Part shown: positions 3,813 through 61,827 of the stretch, in pieces
How positions within the stretch are numbered: the first letter of the stretch is position 1
Layout: the number at the start of each line of letters is the position of its first letter
From: an uncultured virus (IMG/VR IMGVR_UViG_3300034418_011988)
Lineage: Duplodnaviria > Heunggongvirae > Uroviricota > Caudoviricetes
Length of the DNA stretch: 64,000 bases
Strand: one strand, 5' to 3'
Virus record (IMG/VR): IMGVR_UViG_3300034418_011988
Made by a program: the position numbers and the translations under genes
The notes under the pieces: model-generated
Told to the model about the DNA's origin: nothing
The model's input: the letters and a program-made list of their open reading frames with translations, nothing else
The model's database searches: none

Positions 3813-4106
3813 TCACAGTCTCCTTATGAGTTCGGCCAAATCTTTTTGGCCGGCGTCAATCAACGCATTGTATACGGTCGTCCGGTCGCTGCGGATGGCT
3901 TGCCGCATATAGTATTCTAATACCTTAACCATCCGACGGCGAAAAGCTTTTGCCTGATCCCGAATTACCGGATTTGCGTCGTCAGAAATTGAAATGATCT
4001 TCTCGGCGCACAACTCGGCCACTTCTTCTGGCGTAAAACCACGGTTATCCGTGGTCCTAACTTCCACCTGAAACTCCGGGTTGAGCTGTATCGGGTCTAT
4101 CTTCAT
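3813..4106 (-). CDS. Hypothetical phage protein
   Basis: 97-aa ORF with overlapping start/stop to its neighbours. Confidence 0.65.
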   Translation of the reverse strand: MKIDPIQLNPEFQVEVRTTDNRGFTPEEVAELCAEKIISISDDANPVIRDQAKAFRRRMVKVLEYYMRQAIRSDRTTVYNALIDAGQKDLAELIRRL

Positions 4107-8774: not shown

Positions 8775-9239
8775 TTAGGAGAGGTTTCGGTTTTGCAGGT
8801 ACAGCACCGTGACAGTTGCTGCCCCAGCGGTCGCTGCCGTGCCGGTCTGGTTGTAGGTTACCGTGACATCAACATCAGACGTTCCGATGTCGATCAGGTT
8901 GCCGATCTGGGATACGTCCGAGGTGGCCAGGACGCGAGCCTGGGCGCCAGCAGCCAAGGCGTCGGCGTACAGGTCAGCCGTGGACCCATCACCGATGTCA
9001 AGGGTGTTGGTCGTGCCAGCGTCGAAGGCGGTCGTGACGTCCACCGTGATCTGGAAGATTTGGCTGTTAGCAGGCAGCGTTGCGACCACAGTGGTGCTGC
9101 CGTTTGCGCCAAAAACGACGTTGCCGCTTTGAGCCATCAGCACAAAGCCGACGTTGGCCTTGTCCTGGCCGACGGTGGTGCCGGTGGTTGCTTTGATCGT
9201 TCCGGCCTTGATGGGCCCGGAGAAGGTCGTAGTAGCCAT
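8775..9239 (-). CDS. Putative capsid decoration/minor structural protein
   Basis: MATTTFSGPIKAG N-terminus, Thr/Ala/Gly-rich, immediately after the major capsid gene, AGGAG RBS. Confidence 0.6.
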   Translation of the reverse strand: MATTTFSGPIKAGTIKATTGTTVGQDKANVGFVLMAQSGNVVFGANGSTTVVATLPANSQIFQITVDVTTAFDAGTTNTLDIGDGSTADLYADALAAGAQARVLATSDVSQIGNLIDIGTSDVDVTVTYNQTGTAATAGAATVTVLYLQNRNLS

Positions 9240-9321
9240 GGGAATCTCCTGTCGCGGCTAGTGTCAGACTCCGATGAGTCTGTCAGGGTTCTGACCCATT
9301 TATACCCTTATTCCGAGCAAA

Positions 9322-21012: not shown

Positions 21013-22464
21013 TCAGTAATAGACTGGAATCCTAACAGAGCTATCCTCATCCTCCCAGTCGTCCGTCGGCAACTGCACAAAGTTGCCCTGGCGATAGCGC
21101 ATGAGCGCCTGCGTCATGCTATCAACCAAGTCATCATGCTCGCCATTCGGAAAAGCCGCAACTTCCTCAATCAACTCGTCCGCAAAGGTCGTATCGGGGG
21201 CCCAGACCATCCCGGCTTCCAAAAGCGGCGAAATCGCATGGACCCGACTCACCTTGTCATTCCCACGGCTCGGAGTGAAATTCACCACAGGAATACCCAC
21301 CTGACGCAATTCATGGGTCAGAGGCATACCAGAAGCCTTCGCTTCCACAATTACCGTATCGGGCTCCCAATACTTGTACTCGTCAAAGGCAATCGCCTTC
21401 AACTCAGGGAAATCCCACCGCCCCTTCTTGCTGTCCAACAGGATAAGGTTCGGGGGGCCCCCCTCCTGCGGATAAAACACACCCCAGGTCGTGATGGCAG
21501 AGAAGTCAGAAGTCTCCCGCTTACTGAACGCCGTGTCGTAAGACTGGATCACATACTGCAACTGCGGAATCTTGTCCTTCTCCCAGCGCTTCCACCACTC
21601 CCGCTTGATAATGGCGTTCTCTTCACCGGTCGGGTTCTGCTGATACTGCGCATTCCACTTGCTTGGCGGGATTGATGCGCGGACCGCGGTCAGGTCTTCA
21701 ATGCTCCAGAACTCCGGCCAGCACGGCGTCCCATCATCAAAAATGGCCGGAAGCTCCACCACCTCCCACTGGTCCGCCAGAGGGTCTTTAGCCTGCGCCC
21801 TCAGAAGCTGACCGGTTAAGTCCTTCTCCGACCACCGGGTCTGGACCAAAACAATCGCCCCACCCGGCTGCAAACGCTGCCGGGGGCCCCCGGTGTACCA
21901 GTCATAGGCATACTCAAACCCGTTCGCAGACATCGCCGTCTGCTCCGAGTGCGGGTCGTCAATGATACAGAGGTCCGCACCACGGCCCGCGAGGTTCGAG
22001 CCAACGCCCACGGCGTAGTACATGCCCCCAGCAGCCGTGTCCCAGCGACCAGAAGCCTTGCTGTCCGCCGAGAGCTTCACCTCGGGGAAGACCTCCTTGT
22101 ACTCGTCCGCGTCCAGAAGGTTCTTCGTCTTTCGACCAAAGTTGACCGCCAGCTCGGTCGTGTGCGTCGCTTGGATGATCTTCATCTTCGAGTTGCGGCC
22201 CATCATCCAGGCCGGGAACAGGTAACTGGCGAACTCGGACTTCGTATGGCGGGGCGCCATGTTGATGATCAGACGTTTAAGCTCGCCCCGCGCTACGCGC
22301 TCAAGCTTCTCCGCAATGATGTAATGGTGTCGCCCGGCAATGAACTCGGGCCACATAGCTTTGACGAAATCCAAAAAATTTTCTTGGCACCGCTCGTTCC
22401 TCTCCAACTGCGCAAGGCGCAACTGAAGCTTCAGAACTGTCTCGTCGTTGGCGTCGATCCGCAT
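21013..22464 (-). CDS. terL: Terminase large subunit
   Basis: Walker A-like APRHTKS, Walker B IIDDPH, QTRW, nuclease motifs SYDTA and HDDLVDS. Confidence 0.95.
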   Translation of the reverse strand: MRIDANDETVLKLQLRLAQLERNERCQENFLDFVKAMWPEFIAGRHHYIIAEKLERVARGELKRLIINMAPRHTKSEFASYLFPAWMMGRNSKMKIIQATHTTELAVNFGRKTKNLLDADEYKEVFPEVKLSADSKASGRWDTAAGGMYYAVGVGSNLAGRGADLCIIDDPHSEQTAMSANGFEYAYDWYTGGPRQRLQPGGAIVLVQTRWSEKDLTGQLLRAQAKDPLADQWEVVELPAIFDDGTPCWPEFWSIEDLTAVRASIPPSKWNAQYQQNPTGEENAIIKREWWKRWEKDKIPQLQYVIQSYDTAFSKRETSDFSAITTWGVFYPQEGGPPNLILLDSKKGRWDFPELKAIAFDEYKYWEPDTVIVEAKASGMPLTHELRQVGIPVVNFTPSRGNDKVSRVHAISPLLEAGMVWAPDTTFADELIEEVAAFPNGEHDDLVDSMTQALMRYRQGNFVQLPTDDWEDEDSSVRIPVYY

Positions 22465-22488
22465 GAATCCTCCGGGGGCCCCTGGCGC

Positions 22489-22517
22489 AATCTATGGCAG
22501 AAAGTCGCATAGGTCAA
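22489..22517 (-). promoter_or_regulatory. Sigma70-type promoter for the terL/virion operon
   Basis: TTGACC-17 bp-TAGATT, ending about 25 bp upstream of the terL ATG. Confidence 0.6.
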
Positions 22518-22669
22518 GGAGGCCAAATTCGGGGCCTTCTTAGCACCTTTTGGCATAAGTAACGCGAATTGTTTGAGACGCCGTTATTCAATCCGCGAAT
22601 AACCTGTATGGATATACATACTCATACCGTTTTTCTGCTGAATATTTGTCAAAAACATGGACCTTGCCC

Positions 22670-23050
22670 TCGTCCCCCCGCGCGGGGGGCCGCGACGCCC
22701 GAGCTTTGGGTTAGTGAGCGCTCACTTCGGCGGATGACCCGATAGGCCGGGGCCCCTGGACCTCGTTAGTTGCAAAATGCAATAGAGACCAGGCGGCGTG
22801 GACCAGGGACCAGGGGCGCGGCGCGCGGTCCTGGGCGCGTTATTTGAGGGCCTTAATATGCGTTTAAATGCGCTTATATATTAAACGCGCTGGCGCTTAC
22901 ATATTAAGCGCGCTGGCGCTTAATTATTAAAGGCCCGGGGTTTACATATTTAAAGCGCGGCCCACGGCCCACGGGGCGCGGACCACGGCCCACGGCCCGG
23001 GGCGCTGGCGATAGGCTGCGCCTATCAAAGCGCGGCCCTGGGGGCGCGAT
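22670..23050. repeat. Non-coding repeat/palindrome cluster, putative genome-end or packaging region
   Basis: Palindromes CCCCCCGCGCGGGGGG (22674-22689) and AGTGAGCGCTCACT (22713-22726); tandem ATATTAARCGCGCTGGCGCTTA units (~22879-22923); CCACGGC 7-mer array (~22955-23003). Confidence 0.55.
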
Positions 23051-23258
23051 CGGGGCGCCGATCGGACAGGAAAGCGGCCCTGGGGCATAGGCAAAAGCTA
23101 TTCGGTACGTTTTACGGGGGCAAAGGGGCGCGGCCCGGGGCAGGTTTAACTAAATAAATGAAGAATGCTCGAGGGGGCATACCAGGACAACATTAACAAC
23201 TGGCGCTCGAGCGCGGCGGCGGCCGCCAGGACAAAACGCCAGGACAAAACGCCAGGAC

Positions 23259-23302
23259 AAAAAAAGGGGCGCTTAGCGCCCCTGGTCAGTAGATCGGGAA
23301 GG
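23259..23302 (-). terminator. Cassette terminator T1 with CCTTCCCGATCTAC box
   Basis: AGGGGCGC-TAA-GCGCCCCT hairpin plus T-run on the minus strand. Confidence 0.8.
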
Positions 23303-23303
23303 G

Positions 23304-23384
23304 TTAGGCGAGCGCCATGGCGGCCAGGACAAAACAAAACCAAAGCCAGAGCGCGGCGGCCAGGACATTACGCGCCATGATCAT
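23304..23384 (-). CDS. 26-aa hydrophobic micropeptide (not in the ORF track)
   Basis: MIMARNVLAAALWLWFCFVLAAMALA; TGATG coupling with the upstream gene; ends just before the terminator box. Confidence 0.45.
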   Translation of the reverse strand: MIMARNVLAAALWLWFCFVLAAMALA

Positions 23385-23701
23385 CACCACGCCCCCATGC
23401 TTTCGAGCGCGGCGCGATCGCGGTCTAGCATTGCGACCAGGGCGCGGCGCTTATGAGTCAGACCTTCGCACCAAGCGTCGATTTCATTAAACAGAGCGCG
23501 GCTTTCCGGGCCGAAAAACATCATATGCCCCAGCCCCATTTTATAGGGGTTGGCGTTAGCCGTTAGCGCTTGCCACGCGGCGGCGGCGGGCGTCCCCATG
23601 CGCGGACATTGCGCCTTTAGCCGGCCCTTATTTGCGCCCCGGCTTACCAGGGCGCCCCGGATGGCATCGCGCGCGGCGGCGCTAAGTTTCGTATTTTCCA
23701 T
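23384..23701 (-). CDS. Hypothetical early protein (cassette 1)
   Basis: 105 aa with GGGAG RBS, own promoter and leader hairpin. Confidence 0.75.
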   Translation of the reverse strand: MENTKLSAAARDAIRGALVSRGANKGRLKAQCPRMGTPAAAAWQALTANANPYKMGLGHMMFFGPESRALFNEIDAWCEGLTHKRRALVAMLDRDRAALESMGAW

Positions 23702-23721
23702 TTTTTAATGCTCCCAATTGA

Positions 23722-23776
23722 GCCGGCCCCGTGCCGGCATAGGGTTAATCCTATGCGCATAGGCGCATAGGCGCAA
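23722..23776 (-). promoter_or_regulatory. Cassette 1 promoter and 5' hairpin
   Basis: TTGCGC-17-TAGGAT, then 7 nt, then AT-GCCGGC-ACGGG-GCCGGC. Confidence 0.75.
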
Positions 23777-23781
23777 GGCAC

Positions 23782-23824
23782 AAAAAAGGGCGCCCCGAAG
23801 GGCGCCCCTGGTAGATCGGGAAGG
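23782..23824 (-). terminator. Cassette terminator T2 with CCTTCCCGATCTAC box
   Basis: GGGCGCCC-TTCG-GGGCGCCC-T7. Confidence 0.85.
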
Positions 23825-23828
23825 AAAA

Positions 23829-24536
23829 CTAGGCGGCGGCGATCAAGCGCGAAGCGTCCACGATAAAGGCGCTCTCGCTTGTCCGGGCGCGGCCCTTTGC
23901 CTTGAGGCCCACGATAACGGGGCCCGCCAGGACATTCGCTAAATCGCTGGCGTCCCCATCAATAACGCGGCGCCCAAGGAAAACGGACGGGAAAGGCCCG
24001 CGAAAGACTGCCGCGATCGGCGCGGCGGACGCTTGCGCGCGGCGGACGCTTGCGCGGAAAGCCGGCGCCCCGGAATAGGAAAAAATCAATCGATAGTTTT
24101 CCGGGGTTTTACCTAAGCGCGAAGCGTTTTTAGTGTAATCGTAAAAAAACAGGGACGGGAAGGCCTGGGGAATGCCATGCTTTTCCCAAGGTATGTCAGA
24201 AAGCACGTTAAGCCGGACCGCGCCCCTAACGCCCTGGCGCGCACATAGGCCCTGGAAATTTTCCAATTCCCTGGCGAGAGCCGCCAGGAAAGCGCGGCGA
24301 TCGTCATGCCAGAGCGCGGCCTTACGCTGGCGCGCGGCCTGAACATTCGGAAAAACCCCACGCCCCGCCGTGTCCAGGCAAGGCGCCGCGCATCCGGCCT
24401 TATGCCGCCAGGGGCAGAGAATGTCATCAGGCGAAAGGGAAAGGCCGGCTAGGCGATACTCTGCAGCGCCCTTGTCCGTTTTGCGCAGTTTGGTATTTCC
24501 GCCGCGCGTATCCAAAAGCTTGATTTTGTGAGCCAT
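23829..24536 (-). CDS. Phage GP88-like Cys-cluster protein (cassette 2)
   Basis: CP-x5-GC-x3-CL, VRLNVLSDI, FYDYTK, YRLIFS and VGLKAKG motifs; ATG 24536 after GGGGA. Confidence 0.65.
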   Translation of the reverse strand: MAHKIKLLDTRGGNTKLRKTDKGAAEYRLAGLSLSPDDILCPWRHKAGCAAPCLDTAGRGVFPNVQAARQRKAALWHDDRRAFLAALARELENFQGLCARQGVRGAVRLNVLSDIPWEKHGIPQAFPSLFFYDYTKNASRLGKTPENYRLIFSYSGAPAFRASVRRAQASAAPIAAVFRGPFPSVFLGRRVIDGDASDLANVLAGPVIVGLKAKGRARTSESAFIVDASRLIAAA

Positions 24537-24555
24537 TGAAAAATCCCCATTGAAG

Positions 24556-24610
24556 GCCGGCCCCGCGCCGGCATGGGGCATATCCTATGCGCTTTAACCT
24601 ATACGCGCAA
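24556..24610 (-). promoter_or_regulatory. Cassette 2 promoter and 5' hairpin
   Basis: TTGCGC-17-TAGGAT, then 7 nt, then AT-GCCGGC-GCGGG-GCCGGC. Confidence 0.75.
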
Positions 24611-24614
24611 ACAC

Positions 24615-24658
24615 AAAAAAAAGGGCGCCACGCGGGCGCCCTTGGTAGATCGGGAAGG
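24615..24658 (-). terminator. Cassette terminator T3 with CCTTCCCGATCTAC box
   Basis: AAGGGCGCC-loop-GGCGCCCTT plus T-run. Confidence 0.85.
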
Positions 24659-24663
24659 AAAGG

Positions 24664-24927
24664 CTAGGCCGCGGCGGCGGCCGTCAGTAGATCGTCTAGG
24701 CGCTGGCCGAATTCAGCGAGGGCGCGCTCCCGGCTGGAATGGTAGCCACCAACGTTAAGGCCGCCGTTTGCCGTGCTAAACCGATGCACGGCCCAGGGGT
24801 GCGGCCCATGGGCAAGGCATAGGGTAATCGCGGCCCCCATTGCAGGGACCGCGTGAATGGCGACAAGCTCGAAGCCCTGGCGCTGCGCTTCCGCGTCGGC
24901 GGCGGCGATGATATCGGCATGATCCAT
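24664..24927 (-). CDS. Hypothetical early protein (cassette 3, second gene)
   Basis: GGAGG RBS before ATG 24927; ends immediately before T3. Confidence 0.65.
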   Translation of the reverse strand: MDHADIIAAADAEAQRQGFELVAIHAVPAMGAAITLCLAHGPHPWAVHRFSTANGGLNVGGYHSSRERALAEFGQRLDDLLTAAAAA

Positions 24928-24929
24928 TT

Positions 24930-25346
24930 TCAAACCTCCAATGCGCGCACAACGCGCTCAGTTTCCGGGCGAAGGGAAGCCAACGCCGGCGTGATCAGAT
25001 CAAGTAAAGCCTCGCGAATCGCCCCGGGCAGAGCGGCGGCCACCGCCTGATCGATTCGGGCCGCCACCTCGTCTTCCACGCCTGCCCCGCCTAGGCGCGC
25101 GTCAAGCGCGCCCTCTACGGCGTCGTCTAGCTTGTCTTCAAGCTGCGCATAGACTTGATCCTCGACTTCCGCAGGCAATTTTTCATCAATGGCGCGCTCA
25201 ATTTCATTATCAAAATCAGGCAGCAAGTTATTAATGGCGCGCTCGATTTCAGGCAGTTTGTGATCAATGACGCGCTCAATTTCGGGCTGCATAAGCACCA
25301 CCAAGGCGCCCGCAAGTTGCTGCAAAAAAGCGTTCTCATTTTCCAT
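24930..25346 (-). CDS. Acidic coiled-coil protein with EIERxI repeats (cassette 3)
   Basis: MENENAF...PEIERVIDHKL PEIERAINNLL...EIERAIDEKLP; GGGAG RBS; leader hairpin at 25366-25382. Confidence 0.7.
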   Translation of the reverse strand: MENENAFLQQLAGALVVLMQPEIERVIDHKLPEIERAINNLLPDFDNEIERAIDEKLPAEVEDQVYAQLEDKLDDAVEGALDARLGGAGVEDEVAARIDQAVAAALPGAIREALLDLITPALASLRPETERVVRALEV

Positions 25347-25488
25347 TTTTGAAGCTCCCAATTGGGCCCGCCCCGTGCGGGCATGGGAATGATCGCATAG
25401 GTTTTGGGGAAAAGAAAAGGGCGCCGCATGGGCGCCCCTGGTCAGAAAAAACGGCGCACCCGCTGGGGGATGCGCCATGCCCGAAACA

Positions 25489-26688
25489 TCAGGCGACGGC
25501 GGCGAGCAACTCACCGGCCTTGCGTTCTAACGTCACGCGATCCTCTTGGTGCGGAATGTCCCGGGCAACTGCGGTTATCGCCTGGGCAGCATCCCAGACA
25601 GTGCGCATTTCGCGGCCCTCTTCCGAAAGGTGACGGGAAAGCGCAGCCGTCGCTAGGCGCTGACTCATCCCGGCGCGGCGGGTAAGGAATTTAAGCTGCG
25701 TATCCTTATCGTGCGCGATTTCGGCAGCCTTCGCGGCCTGGGTGGTTTCAATGAAAGACCGCGCCCCGGAACGGGCAAAGTCAGCCAGGGCAGGGCGGGC
25801 CTCAGCGGCGAACCGGTCGGGCGCGTACTTCGTATGCCGGATGCGGATTTCTTGGAAATCCTGAATCCCCGTTAGCAAGCGGTTATTGCACACTCCGCGA
25901 AGGTAAAACCCCGCGATGCCCGCAGTCTTTGAGCCCACCTCAGAATTCCACGCATAGAAACCCTTAAAGACTAGATCGGGCTCGCCGCTAGGCAGGCGCC
26001 CCACCTCAATCGGGTTTCGGTCATCAACCAAAAACACAAAAACGTCCCGATCCGACGCGAAAAGGGAAGTGCTTTCTAGCGTCACGGGTGCTTCAGGGTC
26101 ATACGTCATGCGCTCCCCGTTCCAGTTCAGCAAGCGCCCTGGGATTTTCCAGCGCCCGCCGGACTCCTCCACTAGTCGCTGGATCGGTTCGAGCAATTCG
26201 AGATCGTGAATCCGCCCATAGTCGGGGCCGGTCATAGCGCGCAGGTGAGTGCCCGCAGGGCCCGCGTAAGCCTTCACTTGCTCGCGGCTGCGATTGTGGC
26301 GCAGGCCCCATTGAATGCAGTCGGCAGCCAAAGGCGCAGGAAGATCGCGGAGGTAGGCCGCAGGGGCGCCAGAAAGCTGGGCAAGCTGGCCCAGGCTCCA
26401 GTGCGTGGGACGGCGCAGGCCCTCCCCGTTGGCGTCGCGGTAGCTGACCATGACGCTCCCGTGGCGGGGGTTGTTTTCATCAATGTCCCCGATCACTTCG
26501 AGGTCATGCGTATCCACAATGCTGCTCCGCAGGTTTTGCGAATCGCTGCGCTTGAAATCGATCATTTCCTGCAGGCTCAGGAACCGCTCATCCATCGGGC
26601 GGGTATGCCACTCAGTGGCAATGCGAGAAGAGGTTTGGCCAGTTTGCGTACCGGCGACGGTGAAAGGCGCGTGAAAGACGTTGCTCAT
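25489..26688 (-). CDS. DUF932-like protein (cassette 4)
   Basis: RAMTGPDYGRIHD, FASDRDVFVFL, WNSEVGS, RGVCNN, IRHT motifs; leader hairpin at 26714-26732. Confidence 0.7.
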   Translation of the reverse strand: MSNVFHAPFTVAGTQTGQTSSRIATEWHTRPMDERFLSLQEMIDFKRSDSQNLRSSIVDTHDLEVIGDIDENNPRHGSVMVSYRDANGEGLRRPTHWSLGQLAQLSGAPAAYLRDLPAPLAADCIQWGLRHNRSREQVKAYAGPAGTHLRAMTGPDYGRIHDLELLEPIQRLVEESGGRWKIPGRLLNWNGERMTYDPEAPVTLESTSLFASDRDVFVFLVDDRNPIEVGRLPSGEPDLVFKGFYAWNSEVGSKTAGIAGFYLRGVCNNRLLTGIQDFQEIRIRHTKYAPDRFAAEARPALADFARSGARSFIETTQAAKAAEIAHDKDTQLKFLTRRAGMSQRLATAALSRHLSEEGREMRTVWDAAQAITAVARDIPHQEDRVTLERKAGELLAAVA

Positions 26689-26784
26689 AATGATCACTCC
26701 AAAGGTTAAGGGCGGGCCTCCCCGTGAGGCCCATGCGAATCCTCTCATCATATCCCATGGGGGTGCAACTGTTTTTCCAAAAAT

Positions 26785-26811
26785 AAAAAAGGCGCCCGTA
26801 GGCGCCCTGGT
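26785..26811 (-). terminator. Cassette terminator T5
   Basis: CCAG-GGCGCC-TACG-GGCGCC-T6. Confidence 0.75.
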
Positions 26812-26910
26812 CTAGCGGTGGCGAGGCCTTCGCCTGACAGGACGGCGGCGGGCCTTTTCAACGGCCTCCTTCCCGAACAGCAGCGAAGCAAGCCAGTTAA
26901 GTAAAAACAT
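26812..26910 (-). CDS. 32-aa micropeptide with hydrophobic N-terminus and Arg-rich tail (not in the ORF track)
   Basis: MFLLNWLASLLFGKEAVEKARRRPVRRRPRHR; TGATG coupling; stop abuts T5. Confidence 0.55.
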   Translation of the reverse strand: MFLLNWLASLLFGKEAVEKARRRPVRRRPRHR

Positions 26911-27332
26911 CAGACCGCTTCCTCCCAATACGCCGCATCAGAAACGTCCGAAACGCCCCATTTAGCCGCCACTTTTTCGCGCAGGGCGTCAGCCATGTTG
27001 ACAAAAAGGCACTCCCCCTTGTGGTTGTAAGCGTAGGAAACTCCCACCAAAAAGTGCATGTTTTCGCTGCCCACTTCTTCGATGACCAACACCTCACCTT
27101 CGCAAAGGTGCCGCCCTATTTCCTCCTCACAATCGACTAGAGCAACAGCCTCGCTTTCTTCATCCGGGTATCGGTAAGGCGTAGACCCGTCCCCGTTATA
27201 ACAAACAAAGCCCACGCGCCCATCTTTTGCGTAAACCAGCTCGCACTCAAAATCTTCAACGAAATCCCTAAAAGCCCGCTCGTCCTTCACGCGCACATAG
27301 TTGCTGCGAACGCTGCACACATAATTTGCCAT
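26910..27332 (-). CDS. Hypothetical early protein (cassette 5)
   Basis: MANYVCSVRSNYVRVKD...; GGGAG RBS; promoter TTGATT-17-TAAAGT and leader hairpin at 27351-27365. Confidence 0.75.
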   Translation of the reverse strand: MANYVCSVRSNYVRVKDERAFRDFVEDFECELVYAKDGRVGFVCYNGDGSTPYRYPDEESEAVALVDCEEEIGRHLCEGEVLVIEEVGSENMHFLVGVSYAYNHKGECLFVNMADALREKVAAKWGVSDVSDAAYWEEAV

Positions 27333-27346
27333 TTCACTTCTCCCAG

Positions 27347-27859
27347 TCAGGCCGCCCCGTGCGGCTCAGGTGGGACTTTATGCGCATCTATGGGTGCAAT
27401 CAACCCCCAAAGCTCATCCCACCCAAAGGGGTAGGTCCAGTACAGAGAAGGCTCAACGTGGAGCCCGTTCATCCGAACGTCCAGGGCCTGCCCGCCCCGG
27501 TACAGAAACAACTCGCTGGTCTCCCGGTTTTCGTGGGTGTGCAGCCGGCGCACCAATAACCAGACGCTGGCTCGCTTGTGAGCAGTCAGGAACGCCACCT
27601 GATGCGGGCGCAGCTCTACGATAGCCGTGCCCGTGTGCTTAAGCTCGATCAGGTGGAAGTTCCCGGCTTCGTCGCAAGCCATGACGTCCGGCACCCCGGG
27701 GGTGGCCCAGGTCTCAAGCCTCGTCAGACTGATCCCAGGTCTCTCCTTCTTCGTCGCGTCCCGCAGATTCTTCCAAAGCTGCCTCTCCCTCAACCCAACT
27801 TTCTGAGGGCTCACCCGCGTGTCCACCAGCGGGAGCGGCGAGTCTTCGGTCCGCTGCAT
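27347..27859 (-). CDS. PD-(D/E)xK nuclease (VRR-NUC/Holliday-junction resolvase-like)
   Basis: E...RLE...PGVPD...IELK...LRPHQVAF; start codon uncertain, overlaps the TerS 3' end. Confidence 0.75.
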   Translation of the reverse strand: MQRTEDSPLPLVDTRVSPQKVGLRERQLWKNLRDATKKERPGISLTRLETWATPGVPDVMACDEAGNFHLIELKHTGTAIVELRPHQVAFLTAHKRASVWLLVRRLHTHENRETSELFLYRGGQALDVRMNGLHVEPSLYWTYPFGWDELWGLIAPIDAHKVPPEPHGAA

Positions 27860-28409
27860 CGTGTGCCTCGCTGGCTTCTTCCGCTTCCGGGGTGACGTCG
27901 ATGATGTTTCCTTGGGCACGTTTGATCTCCTCCAGGGCTTTGAGAACGTCTTCCTTGCTCATACTGTCGATGCTGCCGTGGCGCACTTCAGACTTGCTGA
28001 TGTAAATGTCGCCATGGGCCTGCCCGCGCCGGTATTCAGCCTGCACGGCGGCAGAATAGGCGCCATTCTCCAGGGCTCGGTCGCGGATAACTTGCAGGTC
28101 GCGAAGGTGTCTTTCGTAGGTCACCCCGAATTTGGCGTCTAATTCGCTCTTGAGGGCGCGAATGCGCGCAACCACGTTGGGGTGCTTCCTAGGGTCTGTC
28201 AGCTCATACGCGCGCTGTGCGGCGCTCTCAGCGGCATATCCAGCATTCTCCGCCGCTTCCCGCTTGGTGATCATGCCGTCCTTCAGGACAAACTCCCGCA
28301 CAAAGGCCTCCTGACGGGGGGTCAGAGGGCTATCGACGGTCAATTTCTTCCTCCCACGGGTTTCTACCCGGGTAGAATTGCCGCTCTTGTCTGCGATTTG
28401 TCTTGCCAT
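27714..28409 (-). CDS. terS: Terminase small subunit
   Basis: LTPRQEAFVREF...AAENAGY...AYEL HTH followed by SAAVQAE..RG. Confidence 0.75.
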   Translation of the reverse strand: MARQIADKSGNSTRVETRGRKKLTVDSPLTPRQEAFVREFVLKDGMITKREAAENAGYAAESAAQRAYELTDPRKHPNVVARIRALKSELDAKFGVTYERHLRDLQVIRDRALENGAYSAAVQAEYRRGQAHGDIYISKSEVRHGSIDSMSKEDVLKALEEIKRAQGNIIDVTPEAEEASEAHDAADRRLAAPAGGHAGEPSESWVEGEAALEESAGRDEEGETWDQSDEA

Positions 28410-28744
28410 GGGATAAGTCTCCACTTTATCGCGTGTAATGAAAACAATGCCTTACGGCGCACTCTTGAGTCGTTACCTTTTAGGTTTGGGCTAGGTAACC
28501 AAAAAAGTATCCCTCGCCCCTTCTTTAAGCCCTTGTTTTATATATAGAAAGAAAACATAGTTACACGGTTACACGGGTTACGGCCATTTGACGCAAAATT
28601 ATTGTTTTTCTTTTTCTGTCTATATATAGGGAAGGGGGTTTTTGACCCAAGGGCCGTGGTTCGCGGCCCGTGCGTCCTGAACCCCCACCCCAACGCAAAG
28701 ACCCCCGATCCGTGGACCGGGGGCCGTGAGCCGCGCTGGCTGCT

Positions 28745-29179
28745 TTACGCTACCTCTTCAATCTCCCACTCTTGGCGGTTGTCCCACCCTTCCTGCACGG
28801 CCTGTTCCAGCTCAGCCTCGAACTTCCGTTTGGTCCTCCAGTGGAGGCCGGAGTAGCCGCCGCGTTTCATTGGAGGGAGCTTTGGAACATCCACGGAGAC
28901 GGAGTAGACGGGTGCAATTTTGACCGTCTCTTCCTTTCCCCTTGGAGCCCAATGCAGGTAGGGCCATGAGAACTGGTCCATGTGGCCGCCGTCGAATCCG
29001 ACGGGGTTGAACAAGCAAAGCGAGAGTCGGTGGTCGTCTCGATAGTCGTGGATGACGTCTCGACGGACCAATTTTCTGAGCGCTTCTTCCGGCGTTTCTG
29101 CCCAGGCCCAGACGAAACCCAGCCCGGAGTAGCAGGCGCCAGCAAACCATTGAAGCGTGTCCGAATCATGATCGCTCAT
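28745..29179 (-). CDS. Hypothetical protein
   Basis: AAGGA RBS before ATG 29179 (MSDHDSD...); 5' hairpin GTGGCTGG-GGGGA-CCAGCCAC at 29231-29251. Confidence 0.65.
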   Translation of the reverse strand: MSDHDSDTLQWFAGACYSGLGFVWAWAETPEEALRKLVRRDVIHDYRDDHRLSLCLFNPVGFDGGHMDQFSWPYLHWAPRGKEETVKIAPVYSVSVDVPKLPPMKRGGYSGLHWRTKRKFEAELEQAVQEGWDNRQEWEIEEVA

Positions 29180-52052: not shown

Positions 52053-54025
52053 TAGGCAACCCTACCTCGGCGCTCAAGATCACGCATCACGCTGTACATG
52101 TTCTTGATTCCCCGGTCCATGGAGCCATTGCCCAAACCGCGCACGGCGTCCTTAGTCATAACGAATTCGCCCGGCATCAAAAGTGCTCGAACGCTGTCTT
52201 CATCCGGGGTGCCTTCGTAGGGCATGATGCCGCCATTGCGGCGCGGATAAACTTCACCGCCTTCGGCGGCGGTCATGTCAGGAATGTTCGGCGGCGGGGT
52301 ATATACCGGTGGCGTATACCCGCCAGGAAGCCCGTAATACTCTGGATTCGCAGCAAGAAGATCGAACCCGGTGTAATCATACCCAATAGTGGGCATGGGT
52401 TGCTCAGGAGTTTCAAAGAAACCGCCGGCGTACAAGCCCGCACCAGTGACCGCGGCCAGGGGCCCATATTTAGACAAAAGGCCCGGCTGAAGCTGCCGGG
52501 TTGCTGACGCTAAAGCTTCCGAGTAAGAAGCTCCTTTATCCAGGGCCGCAGCAAACTCTGGAGAGTTTTGAAGCTGTGTTTCCGTAAGCATGTTGCGGCT
52601 GGGGGACAAATAATCTTTGTAGAAGTTCTCCACCGGGTCGGGGATAAACTTCCGAATGAAGCTTTGCTGCGCCTGCGCGGGTGCCGTAGCACCACCCGCC
52701 GAAGGCGCTGCGGCAAGGGTGCGGTCCAGAGGCATAGCCGAGGCGCCCGCGCCGGCTTGCGCCGCCCGGGATGCTTGAACCGCATCAGCCAGCGTTTCTC
52801 CGCCCGTCGGAGTCGGAGCTGCCGCCTGAGATACGCCCGCTGCGCCTGCCCCAGAAGTGGCCGAAGGAATGCTGATAGAGCCCACTCCGGCAGACGGAGT
52901 TGGGGGAGCCGTGGTAAAGGGCTGAGAAGAAGTAATCGTGCTGCGAATGGTGCTCGGTCCGCCGCCAGCTCGGGCCAGGGCCTGCTGCACCGTCTCACCG
53001 GGGCGCATGGAAATCACACGGCTAACACCCGTGGGAGCACCCGCCGCGCCAGGGGTGAAGGTAGTGGCCGGGGCTCCCGGTACAGAACCTGCTCCAGCAA
53101 GGGGCTGAAGCTGGGCATCCAAGGCGGCAGAGACTTGCTGCGTGTTGGCAAGATTCTGCTGCGCCACCTCGGTAGCTCGGTCAAATACCGGGACCGCGTC
53201 TTCCACAGGAGGCAGCGTCGGTTGGGCCGCGGCCCCCGCTCCGGCAGCCCCTGCCGTCGGGACATAGCCCGTGAAGAGGTTCCCGGCTCCAGTCAAGCCA
53301 CCGCCGGTCAGGGTCGAGCCCAGGCCAGACGCGGTCTGCGCAACACGGCCCCCGAAGCCCGAAACAGCCTCTTTGACGCCGCCCGTAAAGGTGCCGCCCG
53401 TAGCAGCGCTTCCAATTCCTTTCAAAATGCCGCCAGTGGCCCCAGAGATTGCAGCAGCTTTGAAGGCATCCTTCAGACTGCCACCTTGAATCAGGCTGGC
53501 GATACCAGAGCCCAGAGCTGCACCAAAGACTGGTCCGAGGGGCGTGAACGACAAAGCAATAGGCAGGATGACGCCTGCGGCCTTCTTGAGGAACTTACCG
53601 ACCTTCTTAAAGGCTTTCTTGACGCCCTTGAAGAGCTTCTTCAAGAAGAATTCGGGCATCCCGGTTACAGGGTTAATGCTGTTTTCCGACGAGCCGACGA
53701 CATAACGATCCGGGTCTTCAATGCCCCGAGCCCGAAGATCGTCAAAAATGGATTGTTTTAGCGTCGGATTCTCAGCAATAAGCGCTGCCGGGATGACAAT
53801 TTCCCCGGTCTGAACGTGCGCCAGGGTGTTGTCGCCGTAACGGCCATAATCGGCCATGCGGGCAGCAACTTCTTGGAAATTAGCGATACCAGACTGGCCG
53901 AAAGCGCGCTCAGCATCCTCGCGGTCCATGCGCTCAATTTCATCGTCGTCCACGATGAAATCTGCGATACCGCCCTCCGGCACCACAAATTCTTCAAGCT
54001 CTTGATATGCCGGTTCTGCCATCAC
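52052..54025 (-). CDS. Internal virion/ejection protein
   Basis: D..LAH...GE.VIP and DSVRALLMPGEFV motifs at the two ends; cationic amphipathic helix followed by a Gly-rich hydrophobic region. Confidence 0.6.
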   Translation of the reverse strand: MMAEPAYQELEEFVVPEGGIADFIVDDDEIERMDREDAERAFGQSGIANFQEVAARMADYGRYGDNTLAHVQTGEIVIPAALIAENPTLKQSIFDDLRARGIEDPDRYVVGSSENSINPVTGMPEFFLKKLFKGVKKAFKKVGKFLKKAAGVILPIALSFTPLGPVFGAALGSGIASLIQGGSLKDAFKAAAISGATGGILKGIGSAATGGTFTGGVKEAVSGFGGRVAQTASGLGSTLTGGGLTGAGNLFTGYVPTAGAAGAGAAAQPTLPPVEDAVPVFDRATEVAQQNLANTQQVSAALDAQLQPLAGAGSVPGAPATTFTPGAAGAPTGVSRVISMRPGETVQQALARAGGGPSTIRSTITSSQPFTTAPPTPSAGVGSISIPSATSGAGAAGVSQAAAPTPTGGETLADAVQASRAAQAGAGASAMPLDRTLAAAPSAGGATAPAQAQQSFIRKFIPDPVENFYKDYLSPSRNMLTETQLQNSPEFAAALDKGASYSEALASATRQLQPGLLSKYGPLAAVTGAGLYAGGFFETPEQPMPTIGYDYTGFDLLAANPEYYGLPGGYTPPVYTPPPNIPDMTAAEGGEVYPRRNGGIMPYEGTPDEDSVRALLMPGEFVMTKDAVRGLGNGSMDRGIKNMYSVMRDLERRGRVA

Positions 54026-61032: not shown

Positions 61033-61827
61033 TCAGGCGTGCTCGTAATGCAGCCCCTGCTCCTTGCGCTCAAGGATCCGGCGCACCTTGTGGCGGCTCA
61101 TGTCCCGGGCGTTCGCGTGGAGCGAGCTCACCTGCTTGGCGATCTTCTGGTGACCAAGGCCCCGGTCAGCCAGGCGGTGGATCGTGCGGATCACCCGCTG
61201 CTCGTCCTCCACGGGCACCAGGCGCGTGCGGCTGTTGTTCCCGTGGCGCTCCCGCACCTTCTGGAAGCCGTAGGGCACGCTCCCGCCGATGCTGAAGCCG
61301 CGGTTGGCCCAGTCGACCTTACCGTCCGCGAAGCGGTCCTTGATGATCCCGTGCTCAAGCTCCGCCACGGCCGAGAGCACCATGAGCATGATCTGGTTGG
61401 TCATCTGGTTCATGTCGAACTTCGACCGCAGGCCCTTCCCGCTGGTCTCCCGCGGGTAGACGATCGGCACGTCCCCGAACTGCTCGCAGAAGAACAGGGT
61501 CACGTTGCTCTCCTGGAGGTGGGGGATCATCTGCAGGAGGTCGTGGGTCGAGCGCGACAGACGATCGAGGCGGGTGCAGACAATGACGTCCCATTCTTCG
61601 ATAGCGTCCGTCAATGAACGGGAGCCATCCCGATCGAGGATATCTATCTTCCCCGAGACGCCCTCGTCGAAGTAGAAGCCGTCGACCTCGCGGTTATACT
61701 TCTCCCGCACGAACTCCTCGATGTGGCGCTTCTGGAGCTCGATGCTCACCCCGTGCCGCGCCTGCTCGACGGTCGAAACCCGGCAGTAGCCATAGATCTT
61801 GTTGATGCGCTTAGCCGGCTCAATCAT
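61033..61827 (-). CDS. Serine recombinase (resolvase catalytic domain plus partial recombinase domain)
   Basis: YCRVST catalytic motif, DEGVSG, RLDRLSR, AELE, GG.VPYGF. Confidence 0.9.
   Translation of the reverse strand: MIEPAKRINKIYGYCRVSTVEQARHGVSIELQKRHIEEFVREKYNREVDGFYFDEGVSGKIDILDRDGSRSLTDAIEEWDVIVCTRLDRLSRSTHDLLQMIPHLQESNVTLFFCEQFGDVPIVYPRETSGKGLRSKFDMNQMTNQIMLMVLSAVAELEHGIIKDRFADGKVDWANRGFSIGGSVPYGFQKVRERHGNNSRTRLVPVEDEQRVIRTIHRLADRGLGHQKIAKQVSSLHANARDMSRHKVRRILERKEQGLHYEHA

Follow-up and report, generated by a model that had tools for sequence, protein, structure and literature searches.

A covarying leader hairpin with a constrained ACGGG loop in repeated gene cassettes of an uncultured tailed phage

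The window considered here is the whole 64,000-nucleotide stretch of an uncultured virus of the class Caudoviricetes (IMG/VR record IMGVR_UViG_3300034418_011988). On its minus strand, five short hairpins stand in the leaders of accessory genes, each within a repeated cassette. These hairpins exist, their stems covary, their loop is nearly invariant, their spacing to promoter and ribosome site holds, and the cassettes that carry them have been shuffled between related phages. Such an element, covarying in its stem and constrained in its pentaloop, is akin both to the promoter-early stem-loop (PeSL) cassettes of T4-type phages and to 5' stabilizer stem-loops, and it lies outside the described RNA families. 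As for its role, we judge it an even call that the host sigma-70 RNA polymerase makes short mRNAs with these hairpins as their 5'-terminal stem-loops, and that the hairpins would protect and insulate the mRNAs within repeated mobile cassettes; the start site, the action as RNA and the stabilizing effect are the parts of this reading that we infer. An original prediction, made from the letters of the window, had described the leader hairpin, and in this it was right. It had missed the cassette context, the likely position at the mRNA 5' end and the sister lineages with other loops.

The five hairpins, written 5' to 3' as arm, loop and arm with the score from the covariance model described below, are the following.

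27365-27351, minus strand: leader hairpin 5, GCCGC-ACGGG-GCGGC, 48.2 bits
26732-26714, minus strand: leader hairpin 4, GGGCCTC-ACGGG-GAGGCCC, 34.1 bits
25382-25366, minus strand: leader hairpin 3, GCCCGC-ACGGG-GCGGGC, 45.3 bits
24572-24556, minus strand: leader hairpin 2, GCCGGC-GCGGG-GCCGGC, the sole copy with a G-initial loop
23738-23722, minus strand: leader hairpin 1, GCCGGC-ACGGG-GCCGGC, 47 bits

All five had been claimed beforehand and all are present, with perfect stems of 5-7 base pairs (bp), a closing C-G throughout, and the loop ACGGG in four copies and GCGGG in one. The window has six [AG]CGGG loops enclosed by a perfect stem of 5 bp or more, compared with a mean of 0.63 (standard deviation 0.78, maximum 3) in 200 block-wise dinucleotide shuffles of the window; the sixth match (52798-52812) is located inside a coding region and has G-C as its closing pair instead. 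The bare heptamer CRCGGGG is not enriched (26 matches, 35.5 expected), and therefore the signal is the hairpin in its context. When a covariance model, R1, was built from 25 copies and run against the window with filters off, it returned only the five, at 34-48 bits, the next best match having 10 bits and an E-value of 0.54. The statement that no described RNA family could be recognized has also stood: the sole match in the window at Rfam gathering thresholds is Mu-gpT-DE, with none at the hairpins, and a permissive Rfam search of 22400-28800 gave four weak matches, none of which overlaps a hairpin. Among the papers covered on PeSL, 5' stem-loop decay, HTVC023P and phage early-promoter stem-loops, none describes the element, and the words promoter, terminator, hairpin and stem-loop do not occur in the one genome paper on HTVC023P-type phages that was searched (PMC9599517).

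Relatives of the phage were gathered by protein-anchored searches of IMG/VR and JGI metagenomes, which place the same lineage on many contigs. With R1, 34 sources gave 81 copies, which reduce to 58 distinct ones when compared over 45 nucleotides (nt). The loop is 5 nt long in all 58 and reads ACGGG in 57, the window copy at 24572 being the one with GCGGG. The stem takes about ten arm pairs, including GCCGGC, GGCCGC, GCCAGC/GCTGGC, GCCCGC/GCGGGC, GCCTGC/GCAGGC and GGCCTC/GAGGCC, and the sequence flanking the hairpin varies on both sides. The alignment of the 58 distinct copies was fitted to R1 and hence leans toward the structure; pairing holds in 96.0% of its cells, and changes on both sides, seen in 52 cells, affect four of the six pairs. 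Its covariation score of 0.415 compares with 0.086 in shuffles, none of 500 reaching it, and sliding the partner destroys the signal. An independent MAFFT alignment of 25 distinct copies has 91.6% of cells paired and five of seven pairs changing on both sides, and its score too was reached by none of 500 shuffles. Compensation can be followed between orthologous leaders, with GCCCGC in the window copy at 25382 standing against GCCGGC/GCCGGC in the related locus L007 (C-G to G-C) and GCCAGC in L007 against AGCCGC in L106. A sense-strand G-U intermediate, GCCGGC/GCTGGC, was seen once among the 58 rows. It is evident that the stems differ yet keep pairing, as had been proposed from the five window copies, and that the loop is kept while terminator loops in the same cassettes vary: the 16 terminators found by a strict rule in the 25 cassettes examined have 12 loop forms on few stem types. 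Therefore, the fixed leader loop is not merely a result of recent duplication. Together, the aligned copies indicate that the structure is under selection and that the loop is constrained beyond pairing.

The family defined by R1 has clear limits. In 94 related loci (884,929 bases), no further members were found, and the best non-member scored 18.9 bits. A scan of IMG/VR for the exact 15-mer GCCGCACGGGGCGGC, a query that fixes the loop and so says nothing on loop frequency, gave at least 123 stretches; outside the known lineage nearly all are without cassette context, and many are the reverse complement of terminators. By these matches, loop and stem as such are not unique to this clade. A reverse-complement hairpin, GCCGC-CCCGT-GCGGC, was observed directly before gaaaccAGAGGAGAgcgacgATG in the unrelated IMG/VR phages L149, L173, L200, L205, L213, L215 and L254, at about 4001-4015 in most and on the strand opposite to the listed one; this group may be another leader-hairpin family.

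The position of the hairpin relative to the promoter is as regular as its structure. Of 25 distinct copies, 19 have a -10-like hexamer (four or more of six positions matching, the second an A) that ends 6-9 nt upstream of the stem, versus 118 of 2000 random positions (5.9%); every one of the 25 has either a TTG -35 element spaced 17-18 bp away, as in 15 copies, or a TG extension, as in 13. This bears out the placement of the hairpin in the leader just after the -10 box. The original prediction gave a spacing of about 7 nt; in the five window copies, the best -10-like hexamer ends 6-9 nt upstream of the stem. A further detail, that copies begin with AT(G), is found in four of the five window copies, where ATG runs into the stem, while the fifth has GA before it. 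Inspection by eye of the 58 distinct rows places an A 1-2 nt upstream of the stem in most. With the usual spacing of about 7 nt, transcription would start on the conserved A of AT, or on the first stem bases, which would explain the AT(G). The start is thus predicted to be a purine 0-2 nt upstream of the stem, and the hairpin to be the 5' end of the mRNA. Downstream, a Shine-Dalgarno sequence (SD) and ATG follow the hairpin in all five window copies, with the AUG 17-25 nt past the hairpin. In each of the five predicted leaders, the hairpin is the minimum-free-energy fold and the SD is mostly unpaired.

Other ways of reading the leader letters were tried and rejected. A leaderless mini-open reading frame (mini-ORF) beginning at the ATG next to the stem, which would encode MPARGR-type peptides in some copies, is ruled out by the 9 of 25 distinct copies without that ATG; these have GA, AG, AC or ATA before the stem, and the frames and stops of the would-be mini-ORF differ. 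A pseudoknot of the loop with a CCC found 2-6 nt before the stem in about half of the copies fails on two counts, as the CCC lies upstream of the predicted +1 and no linker would separate the loop G-run from the 3' arm. A kissing partner was sought in the minus-strand hairpin at 22988-22962, the loop of which (GCCCCGU) is complementary to ACGGGGC; this loop is one variant of a local CCCC(G/A)GGGCC repeat, and the complementarity is probably due to chance.

Promoter geometry also bears on the idea that the palindrome acts in DNA, be it as an N4-type hairpin or cruciform promoter, as an operator or as a site for the phage serine recombinase. Promoters of the N4 virion RNA polymerase are DNA hairpins upstream of +1, with a 3-nt loop containing a central purine and a 5-7 bp stem, and are used by a giant virion polymerase. 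The window hairpins are likewise short and GC-rich, with covarying 5-7 bp stems and a conserved loop upstream of early genes. Moreover, the window encodes a resolvase-family recombinase and several very large virion-type proteins without family or assigned function (1260, 928 and 891 amino acids (aa)). However, the loop has 5 nt rather than 3, and a full sigma-70-type promoter is found upstream at fixed spacing. No phage RNA polymerase family was detected in the ORFs scanned with Pfam and PHROGs, nor by a PDB sequence search of the 1260-, 928- and 891-aa proteins, although distant polymerases escape sequence searches. With the 5-nt loop, the sigma-70-type promoter and no polymerase detected, the N4-type extruded promoter suggested in the original prediction is unlikely. 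Dimeric DNA binders need conserved half-sites, whereas the half-sites of this element are variable and its conserved core lacks symmetry; both a dimeric operator and a serine-recombinase site were rejected for this reason. In addition, all 81 copies share one orientation relative to the gene. A DNA-level signal of any kind is, in our estimation, the least probable of the explanations considered and a very improbable one.

The reading that we prefer, with the hairpin at the 5' end of the message, can be laid out in steps. First, the host sigma-70 RNA polymerase would start at a purine 0-2 nt before the stem, and the RNA would begin as 5'-(AU)-stem-ACGGG-stem, with the SD 3-13 nt further on and then the AUG. 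A paired 5' end with 0-2 (at most 3) free nt would then be a poor substrate for RppH and for 5'-end-dependent entry of RNase E or RNase J. According to a review, RppH and RNase E need single-stranded 5' ends, which is the accepted explanation of mRNA stabilization by 5' structures (PMC3997798). Hairpin and bound ribosome would cover the whole leader of about 40 nt, with almost no naked RNA left; given the paired 5' end and the adjacent ribosome, the hairpin should stabilize the message, which would be monocistronic. It should also prevent base pairing between the GC-rich 5' end and the G-rich SD. Finally, the cassettes would double as homology patches for gene exchange, as PeSL cassettes do.

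Among the closest precedents are the 5'-terminal stabilizer stem-loops in the ompA and papA leaders, as described in the same review (Emory et al., 1992 and others, cited in PMC3997798). There, as predicted here, the hairpin is located within a couple of nucleotides of the 5' end and is followed by the ribosome site, and it would be expected to hinder RppH as well as the 5'-end-dependent entry of RNase E. In that account, however, the ompA and papA stem-loops have no required loop and are single-gene features, while the present family of at least 58 copies keeps one pentaloop.

This is one of several observations that weigh against the preferred reading. A generic 5' stabilizer needs no set loop, yet all but one of the 58 distinct copies have ACGGG. 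Low-GC relatives have the promoter without a hairpin. The best -10 ends 9 nt upstream of the stem in three window copies out of five, so that a canonical start at the seventh base would leave 3 free nt, and the start itself is predicted from promoter spacing. Leader folding energies are no better than those of shuffles (z from -1.24 to +0.08), and therefore the case rests on covariation and geometry and not on thermodynamics. Moreover, the RNase set of the host is presumed. As 5' protection alone does not explain an invariant loop, the loop is evidence for a sequence-specific partner, protein or RNA. Going by the aligned copies, the loop probably marks such a partner, the action of which may add to 5' protection.

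A stronger version of this idea is that the hairpin is above all a recognition site, with a phage or host RNA-binding protein reading C-ACGGG-G and co-regulating the accessory genes. It could load an antiterminator in the way of boxB and N, act as a RegA-like translational repressor or mark a nuclease target for temporal shut-off, and any of these can coexist with 5' protection. We regard this as possible, although not what we would expect. The loop is held in 57 of 58 copies although the stem changes at four of six pairs, and the cassette terminators have 12 kinds of loop in 16. Sister lineages have other, internally similar loops (AAUUCC, ACUUCC, AAUCCC, AUAUCCC), as a co-evolving protein and loop would give. 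On the other hand, the shared ancestry of recently duplicated cassettes could explain part of the uniformity, and no candidate RNA-binding domain was found in the ORFs scanned with Pfam and PHROGs.

Known protein-bound hairpins provide a measure of this proposal. The boxB of lambda and P22 nut sites is a hairpin of about 15-19 nt with a 5-7 bp stem and a 5-nt GNRA-like loop (GAAAA or GAAGA), paired with boxA and with the N protein. The window hairpins match it in size, in having a 5-nt loop whose sequence matters and in their location in early leaders of a phage with many intrinsic terminators. Unlike boxB, they have the loop ACGGG, which is not GNRA-like, they come without an N-like protein and without a boxA beside any of the five, and each gene has its own promoter. 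With a promoter and a terminator per cassette, read-through is not needed for expression. Hairpins recognized by CsrA and RsmE carry A(N)GGA loops with an invariant GGA, and resemble the window hairpins in the short stem, in the location in the 5' leader near the SD and in a pentaloop starting A-N-G-G. The window loop has GGG for GGA, and apart from the ordinary GGGAG no second site overlaps the SD. More tentatively still, C-ACGGG-G may be the RNA operator of a phage or host protein that would join all accessory cassettes of the lineage in one post-transcriptional regulon, boxB/N-like or RegA-like, with the specificities of protein and loop co-evolving (the A(A/C)UUCC-type loops of the sisters) and travelling with the mobile cassettes.

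Nus-type signals are in use nearby in the same phage, which favors recognition by a protein. A sixth, different promoter-proximal leader, outside the range covered by the original prediction, has the following parts.

29268-29177, minus strand: sixth leader, with its ATG at 29179
29268-29258, minus strand: extended -10, TATGGGACAAT
29251-29231, minus strand: hairpin 1, GTGGCTGG-GGGGA-CCAGCCAC
29228-29214, minus strand: hairpin 2, CCCGC-loop-GCGGG
29213-29202, minus strand: rrn-type boxA, GCTCTTTAACAA

The 12-mer GCTCTTTAACAA is found within a primer carrying the E. coli rrnB boxA (PMC2176067). This is its sole exact copy in the window, and at up to two mismatches there is no match within 23700-27400, where the five hairpins lie. 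Relatives of the lineage keep the sixth leader; in L265, hairpin 1 shows a compensatory change, and the loop of hairpin 2 differs among relatives. Its rrn-type layout suggests Nus-factor-dependent antitermination of a unit that would run toward the small terminase gene and the cassette array.

The cassettes themselves repeat one order: intrinsic terminator, sigma-70-type promoter, 6-9 nt, hairpin, 3-13 nt, ribosome site and ATG. The terminator ends the previous gene and is mostly a GGGCGCC/GGCGCCC stem followed by a T-run. Two promoter designs are used, either TTG(C/A)NN, 17-18 bp and TA(G/A)NAT, or an extended -10, TATG(C/G/A)GA(T/G)(A/C)A(A/T), directly after the terminator T-run. The ribosome site is GGGAG, GGGGA or GGAG. 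Within the window, the parts other than the hairpins are these (families from Pfam and PHROG scans).

27403-27375, minus strand: cassette 5 promoter, TTGATT (27403-27398), 17 bp, TAAAGT (27380-27375), with the stem 9 nt later
26910..27332, minus strand: cassette 5 gene, 140 aa, no Pfam or PHROG family, SD GGGAG 6 nt past the hairpin
26808-26789, minus strand: cassette 4 terminator, GGCGCC-TACG-GGCGCC and T-run
26768-26739, minus strand: cassette 4 promoter, TTGCAC (26768-26763), 18 bp, GAGGAT (26744-26739)
25489..26688, minus strand: cassette 4 gene, 399 aa, DUF932 / phrog_1362
25478-25451 and 25439-25417, minus strand: two cassette 3 terminators
25399-25389, minus strand: cassette 3 extended -10, TATGCGATCAT
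25346-24930 and 24927-24664, minus strand: cassette 3 genes, 138 aa and 87 aa, neither with a Pfam or PHROG family
24643-24621, minus strand: cassette 2 terminator
24610-24582, minus strand: cassette 2 promoter, TTGCGC (24610-24605), 17 bp, TAGGAT (24587-24582)
23829..24536, minus strand: cassette 2 gene, 235 aa, Pfam GP88 / phrog_1617
23809-23786, minus strand: cassette 1 terminator
23776-23748, minus strand: cassette 1 promoter, TTGCGC (23776-23771), 17 bp, TAGGAT (23753-23748), predicted +1 the A at 23740
23701-23384, minus strand: cassette 1 gene, 105 aa
23283-23265, minus strand: terminator after the cassette 1 gene, closing the array

The promoter and hairpin of cassette 5 lie within the last codons of the preceding ORF (27919-27347, stop TGA at 27349-27347). 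The minus-strand terminators at 23786-23809, 24621-24643, 25417-25439, 26789-26808 and 23265-23283 belong to one stem family, GGGCGCC/GGCGCCC, with loops that vary and include UNCG-type ones (UUCG, UACG, CAUGC, CGCGU, UAA). Two cassette terminators gave weak, sub-threshold Rfam matches to alphaproteobacterial small RNAs (suhB/mmgR and SorY), which may be read as at most a faint hint of an alphaproteobacterial host.

This arrangement recalls the PeSL cassettes described for T4-type phages (Arbiol et al., 2010, PMC2839356; Comeau et al., 2014, PMC4122927). In both, a small intergenic module recurs that unites stem-loop, sigma-70-type promoter, SD and start codon; the genes flanking it change fast and have no assigned function, and it serves as a crossover point, with close relatives differing by whole cassettes. 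The PeSL combination of sigma-70-like promoter, SD and start codon is found here by consensus only (all 25 copies have the -35 TTG or the TG extension, and 19 of them a -10-like hexamer), and variable ORFans with joints in the motif are found when the window is compared with L007, L068 and L106. The stem-loop is where the two differ. In the same accounts, that of PeSL mostly lies between -35 and -10 or over the -10 and is a terminator or attenuator; that of the window lies inside the predicted transcript, starts 6-9 nt past the -10 and has no T-run after it, the terminator being a separate hairpin upstream. It also has an invariant loop and a covarying stem, and the phage is from an unrelated podovirus group.

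The variable region formed by the array is flanked by the genes for the small and the large terminase, and has one accessory-gene unit per cassette. Among phages with large terminases (TerL) 91-100% identical, different genes stand behind the same leader, as seen when the window, L007, L068 and L106 are compared; the genes found there encode more than a dozen unrelated small proteins in addition to the DUF932 and GP88 proteins. Homology in blastn ends at leaders, for example at window 27325 against L068 and at 25388 against L007. From these joints, it appears that related phages swap genes at the cassettes, which act as homology patches.

That role might be the only one. In such a case, a uniform leader with its palindrome would persist as a patch for recombination, the pairing would be a by-product of a GC-rich palindrome, and there would be no RNA function. 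Gene-replacement joints between close relatives do fall at leaders, low-GC relatives manage without the hairpin, and PeSL cassettes recombine at such motifs according to PMC2839356, whose authors speculate that the stem-loop may be the target of a recombination protein. A patch would favor identical sequence, however, and the stem instead diverges by compensated changes only (the 52 cells changed on both sides). Furthermore, the flanks on both sides of the hairpin are variable, while its position is fixed relative to the -10 box and the SD. It is therefore improbable, in our view, that exchange is all that the leaders serve.

Beyond the lineage with ACGGG, the TATGnGAnAA type of promoter is common to relatives with a GC content of 0.38-0.61. 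In those with GC of at least 0.52, TATG[ACG]GAnA[AT] is followed by a non-terminator hairpin within 12 nt in 17 of 23 leaders, while lower-GC relatives with the same promoter have one in 3 of 22 and 0 of 7, which is near the random background of about 8-9%. Promoter-proximal hairpins are thus a trait of the whole high-GC branch, and since low-GC promoters do without one, the hairpin is not essential to the cassette. In the high-GC sister lineages, the order is terminator, TATGnGAnAA promoter, hairpin, AGGAG and ATG, and GC stems carry pyrimidine-rich loops (AAUUCC, ACUUCC, AUAUCCC, AAUCCC, UAUUUC). Their leaders are located as follows.

L064: 8011-8070, 8667-8730
L119: 3267-3330, 4691-4750, 5123-5180
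L133: 4741-4790, 6938-7000, 7567-7630
L116: 7981-8040

The leaders compared indicate that the architecture is clade-wide in the high-GC branch and the loop lineage-specific. In low-GC phages with a GP88 homolog, a fully conserved palindrome, TTTACAATTGTAAA, CTAACAAATGTTAG or TTACACAATGTAA, was observed just before the SD of several genes. Because its stem is conserved, unlike that of the window hairpin, it looks more like a DNA operator or a phage-specific signal.

L011: 2695-2708, 3081-3094, 3911-3924, palindromes of a low-GC phage
L016: 4522-4535, 4759-4772, 5697-5710, the same
L010: 4978-4990, 5703-5715, the same

The window is a tailed-phage genome with a GC content of about 0.53-0.62 and with genes almost all on the minus strand, as assigned by Pfam and PHROG scans. 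These identified the genes below, other than the Rfam entry, along with SU10-type adaptor proteins, lysozyme, DNA polymerase A, a UvrD-type helicase, an AEP primase and proteins like gp33 and gp34 of Pam3.

28424-27714, minus strand: small terminase (terS)
22464-21013, minus strand: large terminase (terL)
10276-9368, minus strand: Mu-gpT-like major capsid
9237-9288, minus strand: Mu-gpT-DE RNA, directly 3' of the major capsid gene, Rfam 62 bits against a gathering threshold of 49
61033-61827: resolvase-family recombinase gene

TerL shares 63-64% identity with its counterparts in Pelagibacter phage HTVC027P and phage 023Pt_psg01, and 55% with that of HTVC023P. The source is a marine podophage akin to the HTVC023P/HTVC027P pelagiphage group. 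No GenBank phage matched the window at the DNA level, and bacterial genomes searched with TerL gave only two spurious 40-aa matches, and hence neither a prophage relative nor a clue to the host.

Two non-coding stretches were observed near the terminase genes. Between the last cassette terminator and the large terminase gene, 800 bp (22465-23265) are rich in repeats, namely three copies of GTTTTGTCCTGGC, about 2.5 of TTAATATGTAAGCGCCAGCGCG and several units resembling CCCC(G/A)GGGCCGCG; the stretch is a candidate packaging site or origin. Before terL, there is a promoter-like TTGACC, 17 bp, TAGATT at 22517-22489. Upstream of terS and after a terminator at 28725-28700, the minus strand of 28440-28700 is AT-rich and non-coding, with tatatata runs and a direct repeat, ccgtgtaaccgtgtaac.

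What emerges is a precise RNA element of 17 nt, whose 58 natural variants include ready-made compensatory mutants. The group of marine phages that carries it is abundant worldwide, and almost nothing has been described of how its genes are regulated. With this element, the PeSL concept of plug-in regulatory cassettes, drawn from T4-type myoviruses, reaches a podovirus clade unrelated to them, and gains a hairpin inside the predicted transcript with a loop under its own constraint. The combination of terminator, promoter, 5' hairpin and ribosome site would be a natural insulated expression unit for high-GC hosts. If the loop does have a partner, that partner would provide a handle on the timing or protection of fast-evolving genes that are probably involved in host interaction.

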